The notes below the pieces were generated by a model, which was given only the letters and a program-made list of their open reading frames with translations, had not been told where the DNA came from and did no database searches. The position numbers were made by a program, and so were the translations under genes. Positions 12,668-63,997 of a stretch of 64,000 nucleotides of DNA are shown here, piece by piece (position 1 is the first letter of the stretch; the number at the start of each line of letters is the position of its first letter). The DNA comes from Candidatus Thorarchaeota archaeon (lineage in GTDB: Archaea > Asgardarchaeota > Thorarchaeia > Thorarchaeales > Thorarchaeaceae), in assembly GCA_019057475.1 (NCBI GenBank), contig DXJO01000041.1:7284-71283 (forward strand), in the 5' to 3' direction.

Positions 12668-12940
12668 ATGAATATACAGTACATTTCACAGCCTAGAGTG
12701 AAGGAACTCCTGCTACATCTCAAGTGGGGCGATAGGTTCGAGGAGGAAATGAGAGAGGCATTAAAGGCCATTCGCGAGTCGGAGTTGGACTTCGAGCAAA
12801 TTAAGCGAGAGCTGACAGAATCGGGACTAGTACTGCAACTCCGCGGAGAAGGAGGGAATCCGTATCTGGCGCTGACGGATATGGGTCAGGCAATCGCAGA
12901 CCTGCTTCATGAGATTGAGTTCATCTTGACGCCAAGATGA
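12668..12940 (+). CDS. Small hypothetical protein (90 aa), possibly a helical DNA-binding protein
   Basis: ORF sits divergent to the transporter. The charged helical sequence has no diagnostic motif. Confidence 0.25.
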   Translation: MNIQYISQPRVKELLLHLKWGDRFEEEMREALKAIRESELDFEQIKRELTESGLVLQLRGEGGNPYLALTDMGQAIADLLHEIEFILTPR

Positions 12941-13428
12941 CTACAAAGAATCAGAGTGAAGCTCTCGCATGGCGTCCCACGCGAAAACTTCCTCACGTGT
13001 GATCGTAGAATGAGCTTGGGTGCGCCGGGGACTATCTCCCTTATCTTCGGCACAGGACTGAACGGAATCGTTGTCGGATACCATTCTAATCCCCCTCTAT
13101 CGGTTGTAGAGATATGCGTGTGCGACTGCATTTGTCGAAACAGGCTTCTTCGGGAGCCCCTTCCTCTCGTTCTCACCTATTTTTGCGAGTGCCAGTTCTA
13201 TCACCTCCGATAGATGTATGCGTGGTATAGTGCTCCGGTCGACAGGACCTTTGCAACCTTTGCGTTCTGCGTTCCAGATACGTTCCTTGTGTTCTTTGAT
13301 AGTGCCATTGTGTTTCACCGTTCGCTAAAGGGTGTGTAAAACAAACCATTCAGCCATCTATGGTATAGTCATAAACCCATATAAGGTTTGTGTCGCAAAC
13401 CAATCTATGCAAAACGCGTGATGGATAA

Positions 13429-14262
13429 ATGGTTTGTACCAGAAACTTAAATAGGGCAAACCAAGATATCCAACTTGGAAACGCAGTAGAAAGCGAGGCA
13501 GTCAATTTGGGAAACATCAATACAGTCTTCGAAAACGAAACCGACACTCTGAAGGACATTGTCCTTACTAAGGAGGGCAAGACGCCTCAGAAAGAGGTCG
13601 AATTCGTCTATGACAAGCAGAAATGCGATGAACTTGCGGAGCCTGTAAGGTTTCAGATCGTCCAGGTGCTAAGGCAGGGCATTGATGATACTCAAACGAC
13701 CGAGGATTTCAATGAGGAAACCAATGAGAGAATCATCCGACAGAAAATGGTGAAACGCAACACCATGTCAGTTGTCGAAATTGTTAAGGCATCAACCCAG
13801 TCTGACTGCTGTGAAGTCATTACGAAGAATCAACTGTATCACCACCTCCCCAAACTGATTGAAAGCGGTTATGTCATCAAATACGGCACAGTCACAACGG
13901 GTAAACGAACCACAGATTACTACCGTCGTACGGCCAAGGGATTCATGCTGCTTGGAGCGGACCCATCAGCCGATGAGGATCATATCAGGCGCAAGATTTC
14001 TGAGGGGCGAGAGAAGATTGTAAGCATATTTGATCTCAATATCTCCCCAGAGAGTAGCAATGAGCTTTCAGAGTTGTGGGTGAAGAGCACTCAATTGCAG
14101 ATGGAGTATCGCGTGAAGATTGCCAAGATGATTCGAGGCGATGTGGCTGATTCGGAAGTATTGGAACTTTTTGAGTTGATGTTGAACATCTACTCAATGG
14201 GCTCGGATGAGTATGTGCAGATTCAGAGAAGGATGCAGGAGATACTATTCTCGGACACCTAG
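13429..14262 (+). CDS. Putative winged-helix (ArsR/MarR-like) transcriptional regulator with extended C-terminal domain
   Basis: 277 aa. 'LAEPVRFQIVQVLRQG' resembles an HTH recognition region. The rest is uncharacterised. Confidence 0.35.
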   Translation: MVCTRNLNRANQDIQLGNAVESEAVNLGNINTVFENETDTLKDIVLTKEGKTPQKEVEFVYDKQKCDELAEPVRFQIVQVLRQGIDDTQTTEDFNEETNERIIRQKMVKRNTMSVVEIVKASTQSDCCEVITKNQLYHHLPKLIESGYVIKYGTVTTGKRTTDYYRRTAKGFMLLGADPSADEDHIRRKISEGREKIVSIFDLNISPESSNELSELWVKSTQLQMEYRVKIAKMIRGDVADSEVLELFELMLNIYSMGSDEYVQIQRRMQEILFSDT

Positions 14263-15906: not shown

Positions 15907-16209
15907 ATGGCAATTGAAGACACAGCAGACGGCGTTTTATTGAGAGTGATTGTGAAACCAAGATCTAGAGCTACATCATTCATTGCAGAGATAGGCGTGG
16001 AGTACGTCATTCTGAACCTTAGAGCTCCAGCAAGAGAAGGAAAGGCCAACACAGAGCTACTGAAACGGGTCGCAAAATCGTTGAAACTATCCACCGCGGA
16101 TGTCATCTTGGTCAGCGGCTCCAAATCACGCGATAAAACGCTCCTGATACGGGGGGTAATGGCCGACCAAGTTCTTGGTATATTGCAGGCCGTCATAAAC
16201 AATAAATAA
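15907..16209 (+). CDS. DUF167 (YggU/UPF0235) family protein
   Basis: 'LLRVIVKPRSRATSFIAEIGVEYVILNLRAPAREGKANTELLKRVAKSLKLSTADVILVSGSKSRDKTLLIRG' is the characteristic DUF167 sequence. Start set to the third in-frame ATG. Confidence 0.7.
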   Translation: MAIEDTADGVLLRVIVKPRSRATSFIAEIGVEYVILNLRAPAREGKANTELLKRVAKSLKLSTADVILVSGSKSRDKTLLIRGVMADQVLGILQAVINNK

Positions 16210-16310
16210 CGATGTCGTTCTGAAACCCTGCTCTTCGCGCCCATAAATAGCAATTAATCCAACCTACAATGACGAACACACGTATTCGAACTGGAGGATG
16301 TCTGTAGAAT

Positions 16311-18530
16311 ATGCCAACAAGGTCAACAAGAGCTCTAATGGCGGGGATGTTCCTTGCGGGGCTTATCTATGGGCTCTTCGCGATGTCTACGGGGAGATAC
16401 GACGACCCGTTTGTGTGGCTGGCGATTTACATAGAGCTCGTACTACTAGTTGCCTCATTGACCCGAAAGCCACCCACGAAGATGGATCTTGTCTTCTTGA
16501 CGTTGATCATGATGACCTACACCATGGCCGCATCCATGCTAGGCCTCCTCTCGGAGGTTGCAATCATGGCGATTGCAGGAATTGTACTCTATGCTGGCAT
16601 CATGACTGAACCCAAGTTTCCCCTGACCAAACGCGCAATCATTACAGGGCTTGTTGTTGGTGTAATTTACACATTCTTGGGCATCTACCTAGCACTCAAA
16701 ATAGGAGTTGTCTACATCGTTGGCGCCGAGATGCTTGGTGCGATCGCTCTCAGTGCGTGGGGCAAATACACGAAAGAAGAGAACACAATCGTTGTAGCAA
16801 TATCCAACTCATCGGCTATGATTAGCATAGGTGTTCTCATCACATTTCCAGCGATTGCGATATTCACCCCTGAAATCGCATATGGACCACCCGCTCTCAT
16901 CACGTACCCGTTCATCGTGTTTGTGACGGGAATAAGTGCGATTTTCGGCTTGCTCCTCCTAGCACCTCTAAGAGAACGCTTTGAAAATGAGCCATGGCCA
17001 CAGGTGCGTCCTCAAGCTGAAACAATCATCTCAATGGGATTGGACCAGACAGCCAAACGTACTGTGCTTACTGGAGTTGCAGCTTCAGCGGCATGGGTAG
17101 GAGCAACAAAGATTGCTGAAGCCTCGGATCCGGGCGCTCTAGCTGCGGTTCCAAATGCGTTCAAATCCATCATTCCTGCCGCAGGAGCTATCCCAGAGTG
17201 GATAGGAATCACAAACTCCCCATTAATTGCCAGCATAGGGTTCTTCGTTGGTTGGAAACGAACTCTAGTGATATTCGCGGGCAGCATAGCCTCAATGCTA
17301 ATCTGGATCATCCTCGAAGGGGCTCAACCTATCACGTATGAGGAACATCTGAAGCGAGCTGAGATTCTCTATCTTGCGATAGGTGTGTTTGTATCAATCA
17401 TTGTTGGTGATGTACTCTCAAGTAGGAAGAAAGAGATGAAACCAGAGGAGTTCGAAGAGATTGTGAAGGCACACTCAACTGGCTCCGAGGGGGAAAGCGA
17501 GGGCATAATAATCGAAACCCCGCACAAGGCCTCTGAAGTGCCAGGGCTCATGCGAGTAAAGGAAGCTCTCTTCTCAATCGAAGCAATGCAAGAAGAGATA
17601 CGTGCGATGATTGCCAATCCTAGAGCATACATACGGGACAACCGAGGACAACTACCCATTTGGGTAACATTCATTTCCCTGATTCTCTATGCGATATTTG
17701 GTATCTTAATATTCTCGTTCGTCCCAATATTCCCGAATCTTCAGATTCATTGGACGTTATTCGTAATTGGCACGCCTCTTGTATTTGTTTCTGCATATTT
17801 CACAGCGCGAGCAATCTGCGAAACAGGGATGCTCGCAGGCTACATATCAGATATGGTTGCCATCCCTGCGATCCTCTTATTGCACGTATCATTTCAGTCC
17901 ATAACTGTATTCATGTCAATGCTTGGTGCACTCCAAGATGCCGCGATAGCGCTGCTGGTTCATCTGAAACTGGGACGGTTCACTGGTGTTCGCGGCAGGG
18001 ACATCGTAAAGGCAGTATCAATCGGCATGGTTCTCGGCACTTTCGTTGGCTCACTGATGATCTACGCCATATTCACAACGTATGGCTTTGGGGGTTCTGA
18101 CTTTCCAAGCCCAGCAGCACAGCTCTTTGGTTTCCTCGTGTTGAGCCTGCAGGGAATAGGAAACCTTGAGCTTCCAGGAGTGAATCAGTTCCCAGGAATG
18201 CCCCAGGAATTCATTTTCTTCTATCTCATTGCATTTACAGCCGTTGGTTTCATTGCAGGGAGAGAATTAGGCAAGAAAGGCATGAGTGCCATGAGTCTCG
18301 TCGTTGGTGTTTTGATTCCACCTGCAACAGCGGTGGCGATGCTATTTGGCGCATACATAGACTATAGAGTCAAGAAACAGGACGGTTTCCAGCCTGATTC
18401 CGTTGGCTATGAAACCACATTTAGTCCGCTTCGCAAGAAGATGAGCCGCATTCTCAGCGGCATCGTAGCAGGAGAAGCGATAGTGGTCGTGATATGGGTG
18501 ATCTGGAGCGCAATCATTCTATTTGCCTAG
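16311..18530 (+). CDS. Large polytopic membrane transporter, possibly OPT (oligopeptide transporter) superfamily
   Basis: 739 aa with ~16 predicted TM helices and an acidic cytoplasmic loop in the middle. Size and topology resemble OPT-family proteins; no definitive motif recognised. Confidence 0.35.
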   Translation: MPTRSTRALMAGMFLAGLIYGLFAMSTGRYDDPFVWLAIYIELVLLVASLTRKPPTKMDLVFLTLIMMTYTMAASMLGLLSEVAIMAIAGIVLYAGIMTEPKFPLTKRAIITGLVVGVIYTFLGIYLALKIGVVYIVGAEMLGAIALSAWGKYTKEENTIVVAISNSSAMISIGVLITFPAIAIFTPEIAYGPPALITYPFIVFVTGISAIFGLLLLAPLRERFENEPWPQVRPQAETIISMGLDQTAKRTVLTGVAASAAWVGATKIAEASDPGALAAVPNAFKSIIPAAGAIPEWIGITNSPLIASIGFFVGWKRTLVIFAGSIASMLIWIILEGAQPITYEEHLKRAEILYLAIGVFVSIIVGDVLSSRKKEMKPEEFEEIVKAHSTGSEGESEGIIIETPHKASEVPGLMRVKEALFSIEAMQEEIRAMIANPRAYIRDNRGQLPIWVTFISLILYAIFGILIFSFVPIFPNLQIHWTLFVIGTPLVFVSAYFTARAICETGMLAGYISDMVAIPAILLLHVSFQSITVFMSMLGALQDAAIALLVHLKLGRFTGVRGRDIVKAVSIGMVLGTFVGSLMIYAIFTTYGFGGSDFPSPAAQLFGFLVLSLQGIGNLELPGVNQFPGMPQEFIFFYLIAFTAVGFIAGRELGKKGMSAMSLVVGVLIPPATAVAMLFGAYIDYRVKKQDGFQPDSVGYETTFSPLRKKMSRILSGIVAGEAIVVVIWVIWSAIILFA

Positions 18531-18567
18531 GTGGTTTCCCCAAAGCATCCGACCAAACGCGAGAATG

Positions 18568-19953
18568 TTACCGCTTGTACGTGTCTTCAAGAGCCTTATC
18601 CCATTCGTCGTGTTCTTCTTCGGTCTTGCGCCTTTTCTTGGCCTTCTTGCGCGCCCTTCGAGATTTGACCGCGGCTTTCTTTTTCTTCTTCAGCTCTTCG
18701 CGACGTTTCTTGATTGCTTCCTTCTCTTCCTTGGTCAGCTCCACTACTTCTACCTCTTCCCGCTGTGAGAACCACCCTATTATCACAGAAACAAAGACGA
18801 AAAGCAATGAGATAGGCAGAAGGAAGATTAGTATGAACTCTAGTTCGAGAAGCTCTGCACTGTATTCAACTCCTGGAGGGAGATTGAGCATAGAAACAAA
18901 CAATGCAGGACTCATCATCAAGAATGAGATAGCCACTACGCCTAAGAAACGCATTGCCGATCCTGTGATGGTCGAGCCAATCACATAACTCTCTGATGGT
19001 GCCGCAGCCTTAGCTGTGAGCTCTTCTCTTGCATTGGGATTGCTCAGGAGTAGATCATTAACAAAGTGTTGGAGACGACGCACATCACTCACGGCATCAA
19101 GATTTTCAAGAGCCTCAGTACTCCCGAACATTTTCCGCTCAATCGCCTCTCTAAGAAATGAGAATGCTGTTGCACCGGAGGCACGGCTCATCGCTGTTGT
19201 CCTGACCTTCTCGCCACGCTCAATAGCATCCTGTTTCCGAGTGGCTTGGCGAAGCGCCAAGAGCTGTGTCTTGAGAGTTTCCTCCCGATCTTCTACCGGC
19301 TTACCTACCGAATGACTATAGATCATCTGATAGCTAAACTCCAGATAGGCGAAGGAAACAAGTGCCAGAATCTGTGGAGAACTCGTGAGAAACGTAGTGA
19401 TATCAGTCGGAAAGATTGTGAAGTTGGGAACCGTCAGACCTCTGAAGGCACCAATAATTAGAATGGATTGAATTGAAAGAAAAGCGCCGCCAGAGAACTT
19501 GTGATCCATTCTTACAAGTGATTGTAGAAACAGGGCAACACCAAGACCTGCTAGCAGGAAGAAGAGGAAGCTGAATGTATTGTCCCAGAGAGACAGCATA
19601 ACACCAATCAGGTCCATTTGGAAGCTCTCGAACACCAGATTGACGTCTGAGATGGGACCATCTACTCCATAGGGCTGCAAATTCCAGAATTTCAGAACCA
19701 GTGTATTGTACAACCAAGCAATCGTTTGGTCTGGTAATTGGCCTCCGAAGATCGCTGCTGTCAGCCCGTTCATTATCAGAACTGATAGGAAGAAAGCAAG
19801 CAATGAGAGAAGATGAAATACCGTAACCACAAAGTCGTATGGAGCACTCCAACCCCATGCGCTTGACTCATCCAAGGCCAAATAGACTAGGTAAGCCATG
19901 TATGCGAAAGTGGCAGTTGAGAGGATGCGCAAAATCCAAGTGACCATCTTCAA
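18568..19953 (-). CDS. Polytopic membrane protein with a highly basic Lys/Arg/Glu-rich C-terminal tail; function unknown
   Basis: 461 aa, many TM helices. Tail 'KEEKEAIKKRREELKKKKKAAVKSRRARKKAKKRRKTEEEHDEWDKALEDTYKR'. Confidence 0.35.
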   Translation of the reverse strand: MKMVTWILRILSTATFAYMAYLVYLALDESSAWGWSAPYDFVVTVFHLLSLLAFFLSVLIMNGLTAAIFGGQLPDQTIAWLYNTLVLKFWNLQPYGVDGPISDVNLVFESFQMDLIGVMLSLWDNTFSFLFFLLAGLGVALFLQSLVRMDHKFSGGAFLSIQSILIIGAFRGLTVPNFTIFPTDITTFLTSSPQILALVSFAYLEFSYQMIYSHSVGKPVEDREETLKTQLLALRQATRKQDAIERGEKVRTTAMSRASGATAFSFLREAIERKMFGSTEALENLDAVSDVRRLQHFVNDLLLSNPNAREELTAKAAAPSESYVIGSTITGSAMRFLGVVAISFLMMSPALFVSMLNLPPGVEYSAELLELEFILIFLLPISLLFVFVSVIIGWFSQREEVEVVELTKEEKEAIKKRREELKKKKKAAVKSRRARKKAKKRRKTEEEHDEWDKALEDTYKR

Positions 19954-55493: not shown

Positions 55494-55701
55494 TTAGAAT
55501 CACCTCGAGTTACGGATGCTCTAAACTGGCATAAGAAGAAAAGACCTAGTATTATGAGGTTGGCATAGCCTCATCAAAGAGGAGCCTCGCAAGGAACAGA
55601 TTCGCCAAGAACTCGGGATTGGAACCTGAATTTGCAAAGGAGCTGTACAAGGCTGCACTCAATCATATCCGAGCAGAGATGGCCAAGGATGACTGAACAG
55701 T

Positions 55702-57578: not shown

Positions 57579-57747
57579 CTATGTTGTGCCGTGGTTTCTG
57601 ACGAAAAAAGCCCGTCGTGGTTGTTAGGGCGATGTAAGCATATAAGTATGAAGAGATACTCGGATTCGTACTAGAACTACTTCCGGCCATCCACTAGGAC
57701 AAGTGGGACAACTTGCAGGTGATTGACAAAATCACAAGTCACTCCAC

Positions 57748-57790: not shown

Positions 57791-57898
57791 GGGCCGGTAG
57801 TTCAGCCTGGACGCGACTTCACTCGCGAAGCCGCGGGGACCTAGAATGCCTCCTTGGCATGGAGGAGGTCGTGAGTTCAAATCTCACCCGGTCCACCA
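57791..57898 (+). tRNA. tRNA-Ala (anticodon GGC) with a ~32-nt non-canonical intron in the D-loop region; CCA encoded
   Basis: Acceptor stem GGGCCGG/CCGGUCC gives a G3:U70 pair, the Ala identity element. Anticodon arm cctcc-TTGGCAT-ggagg. T-arm gtgag-TTCAAAT-ctcac. Discriminator A plus CCA. 108 nt in total, so ~32 nt (about 57812-57843) must be removed from the D-arm region. Confidence 0.6.
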
Positions 57899-57904
57899 TT
57901 TCTT

Positions 57905-60613
57905 CTATTCCAATGACCCCTCTTTCTGAAGTTGCCTTCTTACTCTCTCTACGTCATCAGGTCTTTCCGCTAGCCAACTCTTAACCTTGTCAGATTTCTT
58001 CGGGTCGTTGGGTGGAGCAAGTAATGCCCATCTAATTGCATCATCCTTGGACTTGGTCTTTGCCACCCATTTCAGTGAGATTCTACCAGTTCCTTCATAC
58101 AATGTAATATTCTCTGCATAGATATGTATCTCAATGCCCAATTGCTTTGCCAAAGTCGCTTCATCATCTAACAACTTGCTTCGTTTGGTTTCTACGATTG
58201 ATAATGCAGTTCGAGCAACTTCCGATTCGGATTGCTCCTCAATTCTTGAAATCGGTATGAAGATATGCCCTCTCACCTTATCCCTTCTTACATTTTCCAT
58301 ACCACTCAAAAAATCAATCTCTTTCTGCATGAATCCGGGTTCCAGTTTATATTTCACATCGTTACTTCCAGAATTGAGTACAATAGTCCGACTCCATCTG
58401 AAACCGGCATAGTGTCCGAATGATCCGTCCTCTGAAATCAAGTCTTCCAAATATGCTCTACTGGATTCGAGAGTTCCATTCCTCACAGATTCTACAAGCC
58501 GTTCATTTTGAATGGGCTTATCACCAACTGTAAATCCCCAGTAAATGAAAGCCTTGCCCACTGGTCGTGGGAGCAACATTTTGGAACATTCACTCGCTTC
58601 ATTTGGCACCTGGGTAAATGATATGTTTCCGAAGCATTGAAACTGCTTCTCTACTATTCTTATTCTATCAGCATTAGCCTCAGTGTATTGTAGCTGACCA
58701 TCTGCTCCAAGCCAACAATCGCTATTGACAACTGCACCTAACCGAGCTCGCAGAATCTCCAGTTCTTTTCCTCTGAGAAGTTTTGGATGAGGAATTCCAC
58801 CGCGCCCGTTCTTCCCTGTGACCTTCTCAATCCCATCCTCAAAATCCCGTGGCGAAGCTCCCAAAATGTTGCATTGTAGATGCAAGACCTCTCCCATTGC
58901 ACGTGATTGACCGCTCTTTATCCTAATCTGACTCGCGGAATCATCTGACACCATCTGCCGAATCAGTTTATTGAGATGTTGTAGTCTGGAGTAACTACCC
59001 TCATCTAGTTTGAGTCTATCTCCAACTCTTTCTACTATGCTCGCAAGGTCTTGGCTTTTGAAGTGGAAGTAATGGTCAGCCCATACATTGATGAGATCAT
59101 CGGATGTCTTGTTTGGAGTCCAGACGTAAATTCTGTTGTCCACCACACCCAACCGAATGTTTCGGTCAGATTCACTCAACCCTAGACGGTCCTGCAAAGC
59201 CGCTTCAACCTCTGTGTGGTTGGCTTCTAGAGCTTCTTTGAAGTGCGTCAATCTATCCTTGTTCAATCCCCCGGAGTTGAGTTCCAGATATGACACCTTG
59301 ACCTTGGTGTCGATTGACTCTCTATGCAGTTCCTCAGCAACATCAGTTAGTGTCTTGAGGGAATCTGATTCATTGTCACATCTCGATAGAGCTTCAAGTA
59401 GTTTGGTTAATCTAATTTCATGAACAGTTCTACTTGATAACCCCGGAAATTCTACATGTCCAATATCTCTCACAACCGCTCGCCTTTCTCTCTGTAGGTA
59501 GTCATTCAACCTTTCATGCGCCCATTCTTTCACGATACGGTCTTCTTCGAGCCTTCGAAGAGTAGCGACGGATTCCGGTTCCTTCCCCGACCTATAATCA
59601 CTGATCCGTTGTTGAATCACTTCATGAGTCTTAGCCAGCTGTTGCTGCGTCTTTGACTTGCTATCCTTGACATCCAAATAGACACCAGCTCGCCTATAGG
59701 ACTCCTGGGAATTTTTCCATCCTCGTAGATGCGGATATGTTTCCAGCAATCTGTCAATGTCGGTCATTGTTTCTATTCTGACTTCTGGGGAATGACCAAC
59801 ATCTCTTTCATATGCAAGATGCAACTCCTTCTTCTCAATGAATGATAGAAGCTTTGGAGTATGTCTTCGACTGCTTTCGTCTGATTCAAAATACTGTCTT
59901 ATCCTGCTATACTCCTTCTCGAAGTTCTCCCTATAGCGAAATTCTGGGTATCTCTTGAGCGCTCGGTCAAAATCGTCTATTGAACGAATTACCCTGACTT
60001 GTCCGACATCTTTCTCTCTCTTGGTCATCTTGGATTCAGGTCGTCCCGTTCTCAGCCTGTGATGTTGCTGTTCCTTTGAATCCTTCCGAGTTTCCGACGC
60101 CTTTTTGTCTTCCTTGGCGTCTGTACCTGAAGACCGAAACCGCTTTTCCTGTGCGGACTCAACGCTAGAGGCTGACTCTCGCTTGGTTTTCTTGGTCGGT
60201 TTGCTTTGCTCCTCTCGTTCTTGGGAATCCTTGGTTTTTTCTTCCGAGCTATCAGCACTCCTGCGAGCAACTGAGAATCTGAAGGCTTCAGCAATGGTTC
60301 TTAGCAAGTCCCTCCCCGAGTCCTTCACTTCGGAAGTAGAAAACCGGCTTGGACGTTTTCTATTTCCGTTGGGAAACATATGCTTCCACTCACGTTCAAC
60401 CCACTCATCGAACTTCTTCCTGTCGACCAAGCACGCATCTGACACGACAGGCTTGTGGTCTTTGGGAAGGTCACCGTGAAGGTGCTCCTTCTCTCTCTTC
60501 TTCAGTTTCTGTTTTCTTTGGAACTCCTGAGCAGCTTCTGTCAGTTTAGATGCTAGCTCCCTCCTAAGCCGCGCCTTGGTCTTTGATTCAATCCCTTTGA
60601 ATCGGGATCCCAC
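57905..60613 (-). CDS. 902-aa protein with a ~250-aa Lys/Glu/Arg/Ser-rich low-complexity N-terminal region and a globular ~400-aa C-terminal domain of unknown function; operon partner of the upstream HerA-like ATPase
   Basis: The ATG immediately follows the ATPase stop codon, so the two are translationally coupled. The N-terminus begins 'MGSRFKGIESKTKARLRRELASKLTEAAQEFQRKQKLKKREKEHLHGD' and the basic/acidic Ser-rich low-complexity run continues to about residue 250. The C-terminal domain has no family I can assign. Confidence 0.5.
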   Translation of the reverse strand: MGSRFKGIESKTKARLRRELASKLTEAAQEFQRKQKLKKREKEHLHGDLPKDHKPVVSDACLVDRKKFDEWVEREWKHMFPNGNRKRPSRFSTSEVKDSGRDLLRTIAEAFRFSVARRSADSSEEKTKDSQEREEQSKPTKKTKRESASSVESAQEKRFRSSGTDAKEDKKASETRKDSKEQQHHRLRTGRPESKMTKREKDVGQVRVIRSIDDFDRALKRYPEFRYRENFEKEYSRIRQYFESDESSRRHTPKLLSFIEKKELHLAYERDVGHSPEVRIETMTDIDRLLETYPHLRGWKNSQESYRRAGVYLDVKDSKSKTQQQLAKTHEVIQQRISDYRSGKEPESVATLRRLEEDRIVKEWAHERLNDYLQRERRAVVRDIGHVEFPGLSSRTVHEIRLTKLLEALSRCDNESDSLKTLTDVAEELHRESIDTKVKVSYLELNSGGLNKDRLTHFKEALEANHTEVEAALQDRLGLSESDRNIRLGVVDNRIYVWTPNKTSDDLINVWADHYFHFKSQDLASIVERVGDRLKLDEGSYSRLQHLNKLIRQMVSDDSASQIRIKSGQSRAMGEVLHLQCNILGASPRDFEDGIEKVTGKNGRGGIPHPKLLRGKELEILRARLGAVVNSDCWLGADGQLQYTEANADRIRIVEKQFQCFGNISFTQVPNEASECSKMLLPRPVGKAFIYWGFTVGDKPIQNERLVESVRNGTLESSRAYLEDLISEDGSFGHYAGFRWSRTIVLNSGSNDVKYKLEPGFMQKEIDFLSGMENVRRDKVRGHIFIPISRIEEQSESEVARTALSIVETKRSKLLDDEATLAKQLGIEIHIYAENITLYEGTGRISLKWVAKTKSKDDAIRWALLAPPNDPKKSDKVKSWLAERPDDVERVRRQLQKEGSLE

Positions 60614-63172
60614 TCAAACCCCTCCGCTCTCGGGCAGAGTCAAGCCCGATTGCAAGTTATCACCCACTAGCTTGGCCACCAAGTCACGGTCCGGCGGATT
60701 GGAGGGTGCTCCAAGGATCTCAACTGAACGTTTCAGGAGAACCCAAGCGAACTCAATCGGGCTCAGGTTGGGAACCTGAAGGCTGGCCGCGTAGAATGCA
60801 ATCACCTCTTCGACTCGGTGTGCTGTATCGTCCTGGCCCTTGACGCCTATTGATGCGAGGTACAGTCTGCGAAAATCATCATCCTGAACCACATCTTCAA
60901 CCAGAAGTGCTAGTTGGACTATGTCATCGCCGTTGGTTCTAGGCTCAAGTTGCGGCGCTCTTGGTGTTGCTGCAAAATCTGGATGTGTATCATAGAAGGG
61001 CTTCATTCTTCTTCTCACATCATCATCTGTCCAATTGTGTTTCATGTCCGGATGAAACTCAGGGTCATAGAACACCTTTACCTTGGTCGGAACATCGTCA
61101 GAAGGCAAACGTAGAACAATTTCCCCATTCTTCAGAACGCCTATGTGCCTTGCCTGCTCCGGCGTACAGCCTGTTTCCAGACCAAGCAAGTTCCAATCCT
61201 CTGGACTCGTTAAACGATGTACAATCTTCGTATTGCAGGTCTTGAGAGCATCACGCGATAGACGCGCGGGGTTCTGGTCAGCTATCACAAGCCCGAGTCC
61301 AGAACTTCTAGCTTCTGCAAGCAGGTTCAGCAGCTGGTCCAGAACTTGTCTTCTTGAAACTGCGCCCTCGCTCATGTCGGCAATTCTGGGCAGTTCCTCA
61401 AGGAAACTATGCGCCTCATCAATCACAAGCAGATTGCGGAGCTTTTTCGCCGGACCAAGCTTGTCAAAGAATTCGTAAACACGGATGATAAGAAGACTAA
61501 GCATAAGGGCCTTGAAGCTAGGGTCACCAATGTGCTTCAGCTCAATGATAGTTGGCTTTGAGAGCAGCTCATCGATTGGTAAGTTCCTTTCAGCGTTGAG
61601 AATTGCCGCACGCGATTGGTCACAGAGATCCTGAGCTCTTGCTACAATAGCGCCTTCGAAGTCTTTCTTGAGTTCCGCACCATATCTGAGATTTCGTGAG
61701 TAGGTTTCTGCTTCCTCTAAAAACATGTCCAGCGTGATGGGTTTTCCTGGACTGTTGTTGAGCAAATCCCATCCATTATGCTTGTACGTCCGATTTATCA
61801 CCTTGCGTAAATGATTGGCGAGAATACCGTAAAGTGGCCATGCAGCCAAGAAACATGAATAGAGCAAGTCAATGTGAAGTTGAACTGGCACATTCACGTC
61901 AATCAGGAACGGATTATGGCGGTAGGGAGCCACATCCTCCCGGCCCACCGTGAAGACGCGCATCTCAGGAATGGCACCCATGAGAATGCGTGCATCGGTT
62001 TTCACCGGCTCAATCAACAGACTAGGAATTCCGTTCCTCCATGCGTCGATGACAATCCTGTTCTTTGTAGTGCTCTTTCCTGACCCTGACATTCCTACGA
62101 TGGCCGTGTGGAGTCTAAGTTGCTCCATCTCAATGAGTTTCGTTCGTGACTTGTCAACAGTGTTGTGTCGGAATACATGACCGAGAGCGATACGACCAGT
62201 TTGGAATTCTAGGATCTCTGATGTCGATTGTGTTGCTTTGGCGCCAGATGTTGAAAATGATGCTGGGCTGCCTACTCTTGTCCCAACTTCGACACTGGGG
62301 ACCTCAACCAATGAAACCGCTTCTTCCGGCAGCAGTTCAGTTGTCATCCTCCTCCTTTCTAGCATGAGCGTCTTTCGAATCACGTTTCGGGCAATCTTAC
62401 CTGAGAGAAACCTAACCTTCATCCTGGCGTTTCTGTGGCTGGATGAGAGTGCTGCAAGCAATGCATTCACAGCAGTTCTCAGCTTCTCTTCCGAATCCGG
62501 TCGATCCCAGAATGCCAATGTGATTTGACATTTCAGAACGCGATTCGAGATTGACCTCCCATAGTTTCTCTCAAGATGTTTGAGGTTCATCTTGGCGTTT
62601 ACATCAGCTTGTGTCGCAGTTTCTTGACCCCCCAGCCAAGTCTGAGTCGTTTTTTGCCTTTGGAGGCCCTCCAAAGCAGACCTGTAGCGCTTCTTTGCAA
62701 GAATTCGCCTAGCCCTACTTGGCCTCGCAGGAACCATCCAGACTTGGTATAATGAATTACCTTCGAAGTTGACCATAATCTCTGTCATTGCCTGCAATGC
62801 TTGGACAGCCGGCTGGGGAACTCCGGTCAATAACGCAGCATTTGCTTGTCCAGCCACCAAAGGGCACCCAACTTCGGATAAGGACTGAACCACGAACTCA
62901 GGGAAGTGCGCTGCAAAGCTCTCCTTGATGACCTCCATATTCGACCTACTACCTCTTGTAACGTAGAGCAATCGAGCATTCCCTCCTGACCCTTGAATCC
63001 TGAATCCAGTTGGGACATCCGTGTGTGAAAGAGAACTTAGGAATCTCTCAAGCTTGACATGCGTCGGACTGGAAGCCTTTTTCTCAAGATGCTTCATGGC
63101 ATGCTCGAAGTAGGACCTAGGAATCTCAGTAATCTCGATTGCATACACTTGGTTCCTGTGGTTCTTTTCCAA
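60614..63172 (-). CDS. HerA/FtsK-superfamily (DUF87-like) P-loop ATPase with a ~340-aa N-terminal domain of unknown function
   Basis: Walker A 'IVGMSGSGKSTT', Walker B 'LLVIDEAHSFL', and 'VIADQNPARLSRDALKTCNTKIVHRL' (HerA/VirB4-type arginine-finger/sensor region). Confidence 0.7.
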   Translation of the reverse strand: MEKNHRNQVYAIEITEIPRSYFEHAMKHLEKKASSPTHVKLERFLSSLSHTDVPTGFRIQGSGGNARLLYVTRGSRSNMEVIKESFAAHFPEFVVQSLSEVGCPLVAGQANAALLTGVPQPAVQALQAMTEIMVNFEGNSLYQVWMVPARPSRARRILAKKRYRSALEGLQRQKTTQTWLGGQETATQADVNAKMNLKHLERNYGRSISNRVLKCQITLAFWDRPDSEEKLRTAVNALLAALSSSHRNARMKVRFLSGKIARNVIRKTLMLERRRMTTELLPEEAVSLVEVPSVEVGTRVGSPASFSTSGAKATQSTSEILEFQTGRIALGHVFRHNTVDKSRTKLIEMEQLRLHTAIVGMSGSGKSTTKNRIVIDAWRNGIPSLLIEPVKTDARILMGAIPEMRVFTVGREDVAPYRHNPFLIDVNVPVQLHIDLLYSCFLAAWPLYGILANHLRKVINRTYKHNGWDLLNNSPGKPITLDMFLEEAETYSRNLRYGAELKKDFEGAIVARAQDLCDQSRAAILNAERNLPIDELLSKPTIIELKHIGDPSFKALMLSLLIIRVYEFFDKLGPAKKLRNLLVIDEAHSFLEELPRIADMSEGAVSRRQVLDQLLNLLAEARSSGLGLVIADQNPARLSRDALKTCNTKIVHRLTSPEDWNLLGLETGCTPEQARHIGVLKNGEIVLRLPSDDVPTKVKVFYDPEFHPDMKHNWTDDDVRRRMKPFYDTHPDFAATPRAPQLEPRTNGDDIVQLALLVEDVVQDDDFRRLYLASIGVKGQDDTAHRVEEVIAFYAASLQVPNLSPIEFAWVLLKRSVEILGAPSNPPDRDLVAKLVGDNLQSGLTLPESGGV

Positions 63173-63421
63173 GATGGTCTACCGTAGGTTGGTCTGGAGC
63201 TGGCCTAAAGAACACCACAAAAGGTGACTTGAACGTGCAGGCACGAGAGATGTTCTGGCCTATCCGTGAGTAGTATCAATCCTGCTCATAAGCCCCTGAA
63301 AGGGACATCTACCAGTCTGAGTTATTTACGAGTCGAACCTGACGAGTTCCTCTAGTTCGCCCAGACCATCGAACTCGGAATGAGTTATATCAACCTACAA
63401 TAGAAATGGAAGGGAGTAAAA

Positions 63422-63997
63422 ATGGAAGATATCCAATGGGTAGTCAAGCATAGGGATGAGATAAACAACTGGTACTCCGACCTTGGCGTATTTGGGGATG
63501 ACGCACTCTATGAAGATGGAGATAGTAAAGCCTACTATGAAAGCTATGTTGTCAATTATGTAGCAGCGAATGCAGAGAAATTCACAGGAAAGCCGCCCAA
63601 TCATATCTGGCATGAGTTGGATGTGCACGATTTCAGATTGAAAGAAATTGAAACAGATCCTAATGTAAAACCCTGGTGGAAGGGTCGTGTTAAACCAGAT
63701 TTGTTATTGCAGTTTGACGATGCGATTTGGGTGATCGAGGTCAAATTCGGTTTCAAAAGCCCTAATCTCGAAGCAGTCCCGACGATGAAGGGTCCGAAGT
63801 CCTGCATCGATCAAGTCAGTATCTACGTAAAGAGGCTTGAAAATATGATGACTCTGGGATGGTTTCCAAACATGGAGATTCATCCGGTTGTAGTCTGGGC
63901 TTTTTGGGAAAAACGAGTACGCCCGTCCGAGATGTACATGGACGCAATCCGGTCAGAGTGGCCCTATTTGCGAGAAGACCCGTATCCGAAACCATAG
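63422..63997 (+). CDS. PD-(D/E)xK nuclease-fold protein, unknown family
   Basis: 'HELDVHDF...VKPDLLLQFDDAIWVIEVKFG' gives E ... PD-x14-EVK, the canonical restriction-endonuclease-like catalytic signature. Divergent from the ATPase operon. Confidence 0.5.
   Translation: MEDIQWVVKHRDEINNWYSDLGVFGDDALYEDGDSKAYYESYVVNYVAANAEKFTGKPPNHIWHELDVHDFRLKEIETDPNVKPWWKGRVKPDLLLQFDDAIWVIEVKFGFKSPNLEAVPTMKGPKSCIDQVSIYVKRLENMMTLGWFPNMEIHPVVVWAFWEKRVRPSEMYMDAIRSEWPYLREDPYPKP

Follow-up and report, generated by a model that had tools for sequence, protein, structure and literature searches.

What is encoded beside the tRNA-Ala gene of this Thorarchaeota genome, and which of the genes there belong together? The window, by which is meant the whole stretch of DNA analysed (64,000 nt of Candidatus Thorarchaeota archaeon, GenBank assembly GCA_019057475.1, contig DXJO01000041.1, positions 7,284 to 71,283), holds three adjacent genes which a preliminary description, made from the sequence, proposed as a novel defence or mobile module. 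They encode a protein of 902 aa (57905-60613, minus strand, GTG start), called the partner below, an ATPase of 852 aa (60614-63172, minus strand, TTG start; 844 aa in the JGI call) and a PD-(D/E)xK-like protein of 191 aa (63422-63997, plus strand, divergent from the ATPase). These three open reading frames (ORFs) and the tRNA-Ala are real, with coordinates and strands as first given. The GTG start of the partner gene directly abuts the TGA stop of the ATPase gene and has a Shine-Dalgarno-like GGAGGGG 8 nt upstream, in agreement with the translational coupling proposed for them. The conserved unit is the ATPase and its 902-aa partner, not the trio, and there is about an even chance that 57905-63172 is a two-gene defence module of ATPase and nuclease, belonging to Thorarchaeota-type Asgard archaea, in which the part for DNA recognition and cleavage can be swapped. 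A defence-like pair of ATPase and nuclease is the best reading of the module first proposed; the PD-(D/E)xK protein drops out of it as a component. Sequence past the right end of the window was taken from the 386-kb JGI contig 3300032107 Ga0326314_1000005, read as locus L001 for 10 kb beyond it; adding 53421 to an L001 coordinate gives the window coordinate.

The C-terminal domain of the partner had been left unassigned, and structure prediction turned up an effector fold in it. The AlphaFold (AF2) model, from a 53-sequence alignment, has a predicted local distance difference test score (pLDDT) of 82.6 overall and >90 for most of residues 210-902. The N-terminus, described earlier as K/E/R/S low complexity, is indeed so: residues 1-205 are charged (27% K+R, 18% D+E, 11% S) and modelled as long low-confidence helices, with residues 129-203 disordered (pLDDT <50). 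A confident helical helix-turn-helix (HTH) module follows at residues 206-380, then an alpha/beta domain with no family assignment (~397-560), a double-LAGLIDADG endonuclease fold (~561-870; 58004-58933, minus strand) and C-terminal helices (871-902). The LAGLIDADG domain is modelled as two alpha-beta-beta-alpha-beta-beta-alpha halves, each with a helix ending in a catalytic Asp/Glu; its Foldseek matches are I-Tsp061I, PI-SceI and I-DmoI (E 1e-5, template-modelling score TMt up to 0.74), and WhiA is also a high structural match. The two motifs read LGAVVNSD(632)C and LEDLISED(729)G in the partner, with family forms ...SD[GC] and ...LIPEDG. Of 156 family members, 152 of the 153 aligned at the first motif keep D632, and D or E stands at 729 in 152 of 152. 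As modelled, then, the unassigned domain has a double-LAGLIDADG endonuclease fold, so that the nuclease effector is probably the 902-aa protein itself. Since both acids are almost invariant, an active nuclease is favoured over a WhiA-like binder, and the conserved residues suggest that the partner would be catalytically competent and cleave DNA.

The partner gene is not within an intron or intein, and its family has no match in Pfam, NCBIfam or PADLOC; a profile search against PDB sequences gave noise only. Relatives were few in a word-indexed search (only 8) and in a homologue search with the 53-sequence profile (only six close homologues), where low-complexity words crowded out other candidates. 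In a profile search of 1.84 billion representatives, the partner family has at least 372 clusters at 50% identity, 210 of them with E <1e-30. Members range from 600 to 1600 aa with variable N-termini, and the conserved core is formed by the C-terminal ~400 residues.

The ATPase was originally placed in the FtsK/HerA superfamily by its Walker A GMSGSGKST(T) and Walker B VIDEAH. Both motifs are present and their key residues conserved. In an alignment of 38 family members, G360 and K366 of Walker A (GMSGSGKS, residues 360-367; 62072-62095, minus strand) are invariant, as are E586, A587 and H588 of Walker B (LLVIDEAH, residues 581-588; 61409-61432, minus strand), and D585 is at least 90% conserved. 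The AF2 model based on this alignment (pLDDT 85.6) has an alpha/beta N-terminal domain (residues 1-290), a small beta-barrel (~300-348), a RecA-like core with a helical insert (349-715) and a helical C-terminal domain (716-841). In a Foldseek search of the PDB, full-length TrwK/VirB4 ranks first (8e-16; TMt 0.74 for the VirB4 C-terminal domain), followed by Sulfolobus solfataricus HerA (5e-14), Thermococcus HerA and then the HerA subunits of SIR2-HerA, DUF4297-HerA and TdpAB. With matches at E 1e-13 to 1e-15, the superfamily assignment stands and can be narrowed: the ATPase belongs to the VirB4/HerA clade of the FtsK/HerA superfamily. It has no predicted transmembrane (TM) helix, the highest 19-residue Kyte-Doolittle average being 1.52.

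Assignment to a named family is another matter. The ATPase lies outside the curated HerA, CedD and TraC families, because it scores 19-46 bits against cut-offs of 567-970: 25.5 against 970 for helicase_HerA, 19 against 800 for HerA_Thermprot, 44 against 800 for HerA_antiphage, 20.5 against 567 for TraC and, over its C-terminal region, 45.7 against 600 for CedD (3.8e-12). For the N-terminal region, singled out earlier for a check by structure and profile, an alpha/beta domain of ~290 residues could thus be modelled, but no curated family of HerA/VirB4 type reached its cut-off. All Pfam matches of the ATPase (TraG P-loop, DUF87, HerA_C, FtsK) are under gathering scores, and the NCBIfam ones are likewise sub-threshold (ser_rich_anae_1, 3.8e-21, besides CedD and HerA_antiphage). 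PADLOC gives mad8 at 1.5e-14 over residues 352-699 and several HerA models at ~1e-13. No mad1-7-like genes were found by Pfam in the window locus, the other mad models having been run on the three window proteins and ten neighbours only. The PHROG matches are one of unknown function and a weak one to a terminase. Among the matches listed in genome and metagenome scans with the ATPase profile, most are distant DUF87 ATPases of bacteria, and at least ~6 loci from genomes and at least ~5 from metagenomes are true members of the family. By source name the homologues are from Candidatus Thorarchaeota or Sifarchaeia, and a 95%-identical locus is from a Thorarchaeota metagenome-assembled genome.

In every family locus with readable downstream sequence the ATPase gene is followed by one for a partner of 680-950 aa, with an overlap or a gap of a few nt (L002/L010, L005, L006/L007, L008/L009, L012, L013, L014, L090, L093, L111, L112, L113 and the distant L114). 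At least 15 loci of Thorarchaeota type have the ATPase followed by an HTH/LAGLIDADG partner. The partners form at least two sequence families, and partner type follows ATPase clade in a rough neighbour-joining tree of the ATPases. Type A, that of the window, is invisible to the Pfam LAGLIDADG models; type B has members that LAGLIDADG_3 matches with 27 bits (cut-off 22.5) and that show the motifs LGTYVSDS and LQGxSDGDG. The two types have a common HTH module (hhalign probability 96.9%, E 1.8e-10) and two LAGLIDADG-like motifs each, and the L008 partner is a variant with seven HTH repeats. Two sister genomes (L002 and L004) have the pair at the same place as the window, abutting tRNA-Ala, and a second syntenic position is found beside an acyl-CoA dehydrogenase gene in other Thorarchaeota (L005, L006, L113). 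Type A proteins also occur with no adjacent ATPase, one of 951 aa between flavin reductase and unknown genes (L003 10001-12856) and one as a second copy in L112 (21629-22556); the LAGLIDADG protein may also act alone.

Comparison with the sister genomes shows that the two genes of the pair have evolved very differently. The CPSF, SepF, PUA and LSM proteins encoded to the left of the tRNA have 94-97% amino-acid identity to their counterparts there, and the ATPase has 95%. In the partner, identity per 50-residue block is 72-98% over residues 1-300 and 26-60% over residues 300-902 (~40% overall for the latter). At the DNA level, the ATPase gene and the partner gene as far as codon ~292 (59737) are 92-93% identical, and such identity returns at the tRNA and the 50 nt upstream of it; blastn finds nothing within the 1.84-kb segment between (57899-59737, minus strand; partner codons ~293-902 to the tRNA 3' end), apart from ~70% identity over the last 90 codons. 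The sequences fall into two haplotype groups, and within each group identity is uniform along the partner gene. Given this uniformity and the sharp breakpoints, a 1.84-kb cassette comprising the HTH-distal, middle and LAGLIDADG parts has been replaced by recombination, so that closely related strains differ by cassette replacement of the C-terminal part of the partner. A special constraint on the N-terminal low-complexity region was considered and dropped, its high conservation reflecting the recombination breakpoint at codon ~292. In the acyl-CoA dehydrogenase group the order is the same (86-96% for the neighbour, 60-85% for the ATPase and 31-76% for the partner). In L004 (8116-10000) the ATPase gene is broken into ORFs of 194 and 439 aa and the partner gene is intact; the pair is evidently dispensable there, since the ATPase is truncated to 439 aa.

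A role in defence is favoured for this pair by analogy with HerA-like ATPase-effector logic, by its fast evolution and allele swapping, by its dispensability in L004 and by its neighbourhoods. In other lineages the neighbours include type I and type IIG restriction-modification genes, a DNA methylase with HATPase_c_3, SLFN_AlbA_2, HEPN_AbiV, a NucC-like DUF6602 protein, an HNH/ZorE-like protein, a PLD nuclease, UvrD and transposases; a STAND-TPR protein (signal transduction ATPase with numerous domains; tetratricopeptide repeat) is another neighbour of the pair. At the Thorarchaeota-type loci the pair usually adjoins genes of these kinds (restriction-modification, Schlafen/AlbA, HEPN, NucC-like, STAND or transposase). 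The ATPase would be a soluble motor, presumably hexameric and DNA-translocating as its relatives are, and probably forms a complex with the partner. The HTH/LAGLIDADG part would then supply sequence or structure recognition and cleavage of invading DNA, with the ATPase providing loading, translocation or activation. The part with this proposed recognition and nuclease role is the one exchanged as a cassette between closely related strains. A more specific proposal can be offered tentatively, as possible rather than probable: a domesticated homing-endonuclease scaffold of LAGLIDADG type, fused to HTH domains, has become the sequence-reading effector of a VirB4/HerA-type motor in an unrecognised Asgard immune system, its specificity diversified by wholesale cassette replacement.

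Several observations weigh against a defence module. Neither protein matches a validated defence family at threshold, and the HerA-type matches in PADLOC and NCBIfam span part of the ATPase domain only. The defence-island context was judged by eye from ~10 loci, not by statistics. The pair holds a fixed chromosomal position over considerable divergence, which also fits a host function in DNA metabolism, and partner copies stand alone, with no ATPase, at L003 and from L112 21629 onward. LAGLIDADG proteins, moreover, are typically selfish homing enzymes or, as WhiA, regulators.

The surroundings of the pair raise a further possibility, since they have the marks of mobile DNA. The tRNA-Ala(GGC) gene, with encoded CCA (57791-57898, plus strand), is convergent to the partner gene, and its end is 6 nt from the partner stop codon. 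Its 48-nt 3' half (57851-57898, plus strand), which resembles an attL core, recurs 12.1 kb downstream with 88% identity at L001 16533-16580. This is equivalent to window 69954-70001, so the right boundary does lie beyond the window, as was supposed. The 12.1-kb segment contains the partner, ATPase and PD-(D/E)xK genes and those for a leucine-rich repeat (LRR) protein, an AAA_16/TPR STAND protein, a membrane protein and a 71-aa ORF. Four more degenerate remnants of the tRNA-Ala 3' end are found within 3.5 kb (L001 17593-17640, 18240-18266, 18827-18852 and 19980-20011). L004 carries comparable remnants, and the distal flank up to a nitroreductase gene is common to the genomes. The preliminary description suggested looking past the window for a repeat of the tRNA 3' end and an integrase; the direct repeat is there, but no recombinase was detected by Pfam in called genes or ORFs of at least 100 aa within L001 4478-16580. 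A split integrase of the Sulfolobus spindle-shaped virus type was rejected, as the ORFs flanking the attachment-site (att) repeats are convergent and not one split ORF. Though the integrase was not found, this is the signature of repeated integrase-mediated insertion at tRNA-Ala, and the pair is the part of a decayed integration island closest to the tRNA. The idea that the genes are an insertion is borne out as far as there is a variable island with repeats at the tRNA 3' end; a recent insertion of the pair in this genome alone is contradicted by its presence in the two sisters.

The remnant array as a whole (L001 16533-20011, equivalent to window 69954-73432) comprises five tRNA-Ala 3'-end remnants with differing T-stem sequences. 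They are separated by spacers of 0.6-1.2 kb with one small gene each (DUF6997, two membrane ORFs and an acetyltransferase), and the array looks like a graveyard of serial integrations.

The main alternative to defence, though an unlikely one, is that the pair is mobile-element machinery. It might be the module by which an integrated element processes and transfers or maintains its DNA, with a VirB4-like motor and a site-specific endonuclease acting as a relaxase or terminase would. Or else the LAGLIDADG part might be a selfish homing cassette that cuts alleles without it, its spread occurring through recombination between the tRNA at one end and the conserved 5' part of the gene at the other. 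Besides the location in the 12.1-kb segment bounded by the 48-nt repeat, with the four att-like remnants, in three genomes no more than 0-6 nt separate the partner stop from the tRNA 3' end, and the replaced 1.84-kb segment ends exactly at the tRNA, resembling cassette exchange by homologous recombination. The ATPase has its best full-length structural matches in VirB4/TrwK, with the weak PHROG terminase and Pfam TraG matches pointing the same way. Against this, no integrase, relaxase, replication, capsid, VirB6/CedA-type membrane or pilin gene was found by Pfam in the element or in the surroundings of the pair elsewhere, and no neighbours of type IV secretion system (T4SS) type (VirB3/VirB8, VirB6/CedA channel, pilin) occur in ~12 loci. 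The proteins have no TM helix, the other pair loci have no tRNA within 10 kb, IMG/VR scans found no relatives of the ATPase or of the 191-aa protein, and tblastn of the partner against phage and plasmid records gave no match. Between sisters the ATPase is conserved like housekeeping genes, and in each of two lineages the position of the pair is fixed. The catalytic acids are kept over ~150 diverse members, which is atypical of rapidly decaying homing genes.

For the ATPase itself, the only matches in phage and plasmid records are DUF87 ATPases of ~1040 aa encoded by bacterial plasmids. Examples are from Acinetobacter (NZ_CP048660.1, L116) and Streptomyces (NZ_CP108214.1, L117), with ~30% identity to the ATPase core, and one of these plasmid genes is downstream of a WYL-domain regulator gene and upstream of four hypothetical genes. 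The NCBIfam family ser_rich_anae_1 may belong to the same distant group.

It is improbable that the pair is instead a host DNA repair or recombination machine like HerA-NurA, in which DNA ends would be processed by the LAGLIDADG protein while the ATPase translocates on them. The ATPase is structurally like the HerA of HerA-NurA complexes, and the pair is inherited at a fixed locus and widespread in Thorarchaeota and Sifarchaeia, all of which would suit such a machine. Against it, partner evolution far outpaces that of the neighbouring genes, and strains differ by replacement in the partner; one of the sister genomes has a truncated ATPase, and no linkage to NurA, Mre11 or Rad50 genes is seen in the neighbourhoods of the pair. 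The NCBIfam HerA equivalog scores of 19-44 bits are far under the cut-offs of 800-970, and LAGLIDADG enzymes are sequence-specific, a property that suits end processing poorly.

Quite improbable, too, is a partner that acts as a WhiA-like DNA-binding regulator or chromatin factor, with the LAGLIDADG scaffold for binding only and an ATPase that remodels or loads it. The HTH domains, up to seven in the L008 partner, would fit this, but WhiA has lost the catalytic acids that are both almost invariant here, the domain order differs, with the HTH N-terminal in the partner, and swapping of a regulator between near-identical strains is not expected. That ATPase, partner and PD-(D/E)xK protein make up one three-gene system, as originally put forward, is barely tenable: the genes are adjacent and divergently transcribed from a common 249-bp intergenic region, but the 191-aa gene is missing from the orthologous position in L002 and L004 and from every other pair locus examined, and its 90%-identity cluster consists of that single sequence.

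What stands upstream of the ATPase at that position in the sister genomes is a beta-helix protein gene or small ORFs. The presence/absence comparison first suggested for the tRNA-Ala locus comes out differently for the pair, present in both sisters, and for the 191-aa gene, absent from both. The 191-aa protein has weak matches only (NERD, E 0.006, 17.5 bits against 22.1; PADLOC CARF_PDDEXK, 0.003), and its motif is PD-x12-EVK, the spacing of x14 given earlier being in error. The LRR and STAND genes are missing from the two sister loci as well, and these three genes are separate island cargo. The 387-aa LRR protein is encoded beside the 945-aa AAA_16 + TPR STAND NTPase (L001 10767-15094), and the two may be an independent module like NOD-like receptors (NLR) in the same island.

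To the left of the tRNA the window has genes for a KH/beta-CASP CPSF homologue, SepF, a PUA protein, an Sm/LSM protein and ribosomal protein L37e. Sister genomes have two extra insertions in this part, given here by their L002 coordinates: a gene for a NucC-like DUF6602 nuclease (12843-14098; PADLOC NucC 3e-20) just upstream of the tRNA, lacking at window 57710-57740, and one for an 895-aa DEAD/ResIII helicase (16111-18798) between the PUA and SepF genes, lacking at window 55560-55564.

The tRNA-Ala was described as containing an intron, and an insert is indeed seen. ARAGORN does not call this tRNA, and the Rfam tRNA model matches its 3' part only (30.5 bits); the G3:U70 pair and GGC anticodon can be read in the sequence. 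Insert aside, it is 100% identical to the ARAGORN-called tRNA-Ala of L004 and 98% to that of L002. Because the sister tRNAs are the same without 57811-57841 (plus strand), a clean 31-nt gap in the alignment of L002 and L004, these 31 nt are taken as a D-loop insert, placed between tRNA positions 20 and 21. They hold a CUCGCG/CGCGGG hairpin, and a minimum free energy fold of the pre-tRNA shows no clear bulge-helix-bulge motif. The insert is presumably a non-canonical archaeal intron, recently gained or lost, and is best labelled a putative one. It adjoins a LAGLIDADG gene, which may be coincidence; the LAGLIDADG family is classically encoded in archaeal introns.

If the defence reading is right, LAGLIDADG enzymes would be a new effector class in prokaryotic defence. 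Neither of the two protein families is represented by a model of Pfam, NCBIfam or PADLOC. Genome engineering makes use of LAGLIDADG enzymes as meganucleases with long targets, and new specificities could come from a family that is naturally diversified through cassette swapping and linked to a motor. The locus is also a clean example of a tRNA-linked archaeal integration hotspot with serial att remnants. Defence in archaea has been little explored. Recognised defence systems are few in many archaeal genomes (PMC12988326), and an Asgard-wide defence module would help to fill this gap.

Pairs of a HerA-type ATPase and an effector are an established logic of prokaryotic immunity and repair. The present pair resembles the HerA-effector systems (SIR2-HerA/Nezha, DUF4297-HerA, TdpAB) and HerA-NurA as a two-gene operon for a HerA-clade ATPase, hexameric in those systems, and an effector, often a nuclease; its ATPase domain superposes on the HerAs, in line with the PADLOC HerA matches. 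It differs in its effector, HTH + double-LAGLIDADG and not Sir2, DUF4297/Cap4-like, TdpB or NurA, and in its ATPase, canonical HerA being without the 290-residue alpha/beta N-terminal and the helical C-terminal domains. SIR2-HerA and DUF4297-HerA (Gao_Her, Nezha) are defined by a Sir2 or DUF4297 effector beside HerA, and HerA-NurA end resection by a NurA partner and a HerA equivalog; here the protein beside the ATPase has the LAGLIDADG fold, and the equivalog scores are those given above. VirB4/TrwK and the archaeal CedB/CedD are similar in size (~800-850 aa), in the large N-terminal domain and by the TrwK/VirB4 and CedD matches already noted. CedD is a TM-domain protein that acts in DNA import together with membrane partners (PMC11868833), whereas the ATPase here has no TM helix, and no VirB6/CedA-like membrane partner, pilin or T4SS gene is nearby.

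On the side of the island, the locus is like other tRNA-targeted islands in lying directly 3' of a tRNA, in the direct repeats of the tRNA 3' half with serial remnants and in its strain-variable cargo; it is unlike them in that no integrase was detected and the pair is away from any tRNA in other lineages. Compared with the monomeric double-motif LAGLIDADG endonucleases (I-DmoI, I-Tsp061I, PI-PfuI, PI-SceI), the domain here is C-terminal in a protein of 700-1600 aa with HTH and other domains, and, unlike that of homing endonucleases, it is outside any intron or intein and operonically tied to a motor ATPase. WhiA (DUF199) is likewise a LAGLIDADG scaffold joined to an HTH, in a cellular protein that has no homing function, but in WhiA the catalytic acids are absent and the HTH is C-terminal, whereas the partner has conserved acids, an N-terminal HTH and an ATPase beside it. 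Nowhere in the literature searched is a LAGLIDADG protein described as the companion of a HerA/VirB4-type ATPase, and to our knowledge no LAGLIDADG nuclease has been described as the effector of a HerA-type ATPase pair. Within ATPase-nuclease conflict modules, it is the LAGLIDADG effector and its cassette-type diversification that are unusual here.

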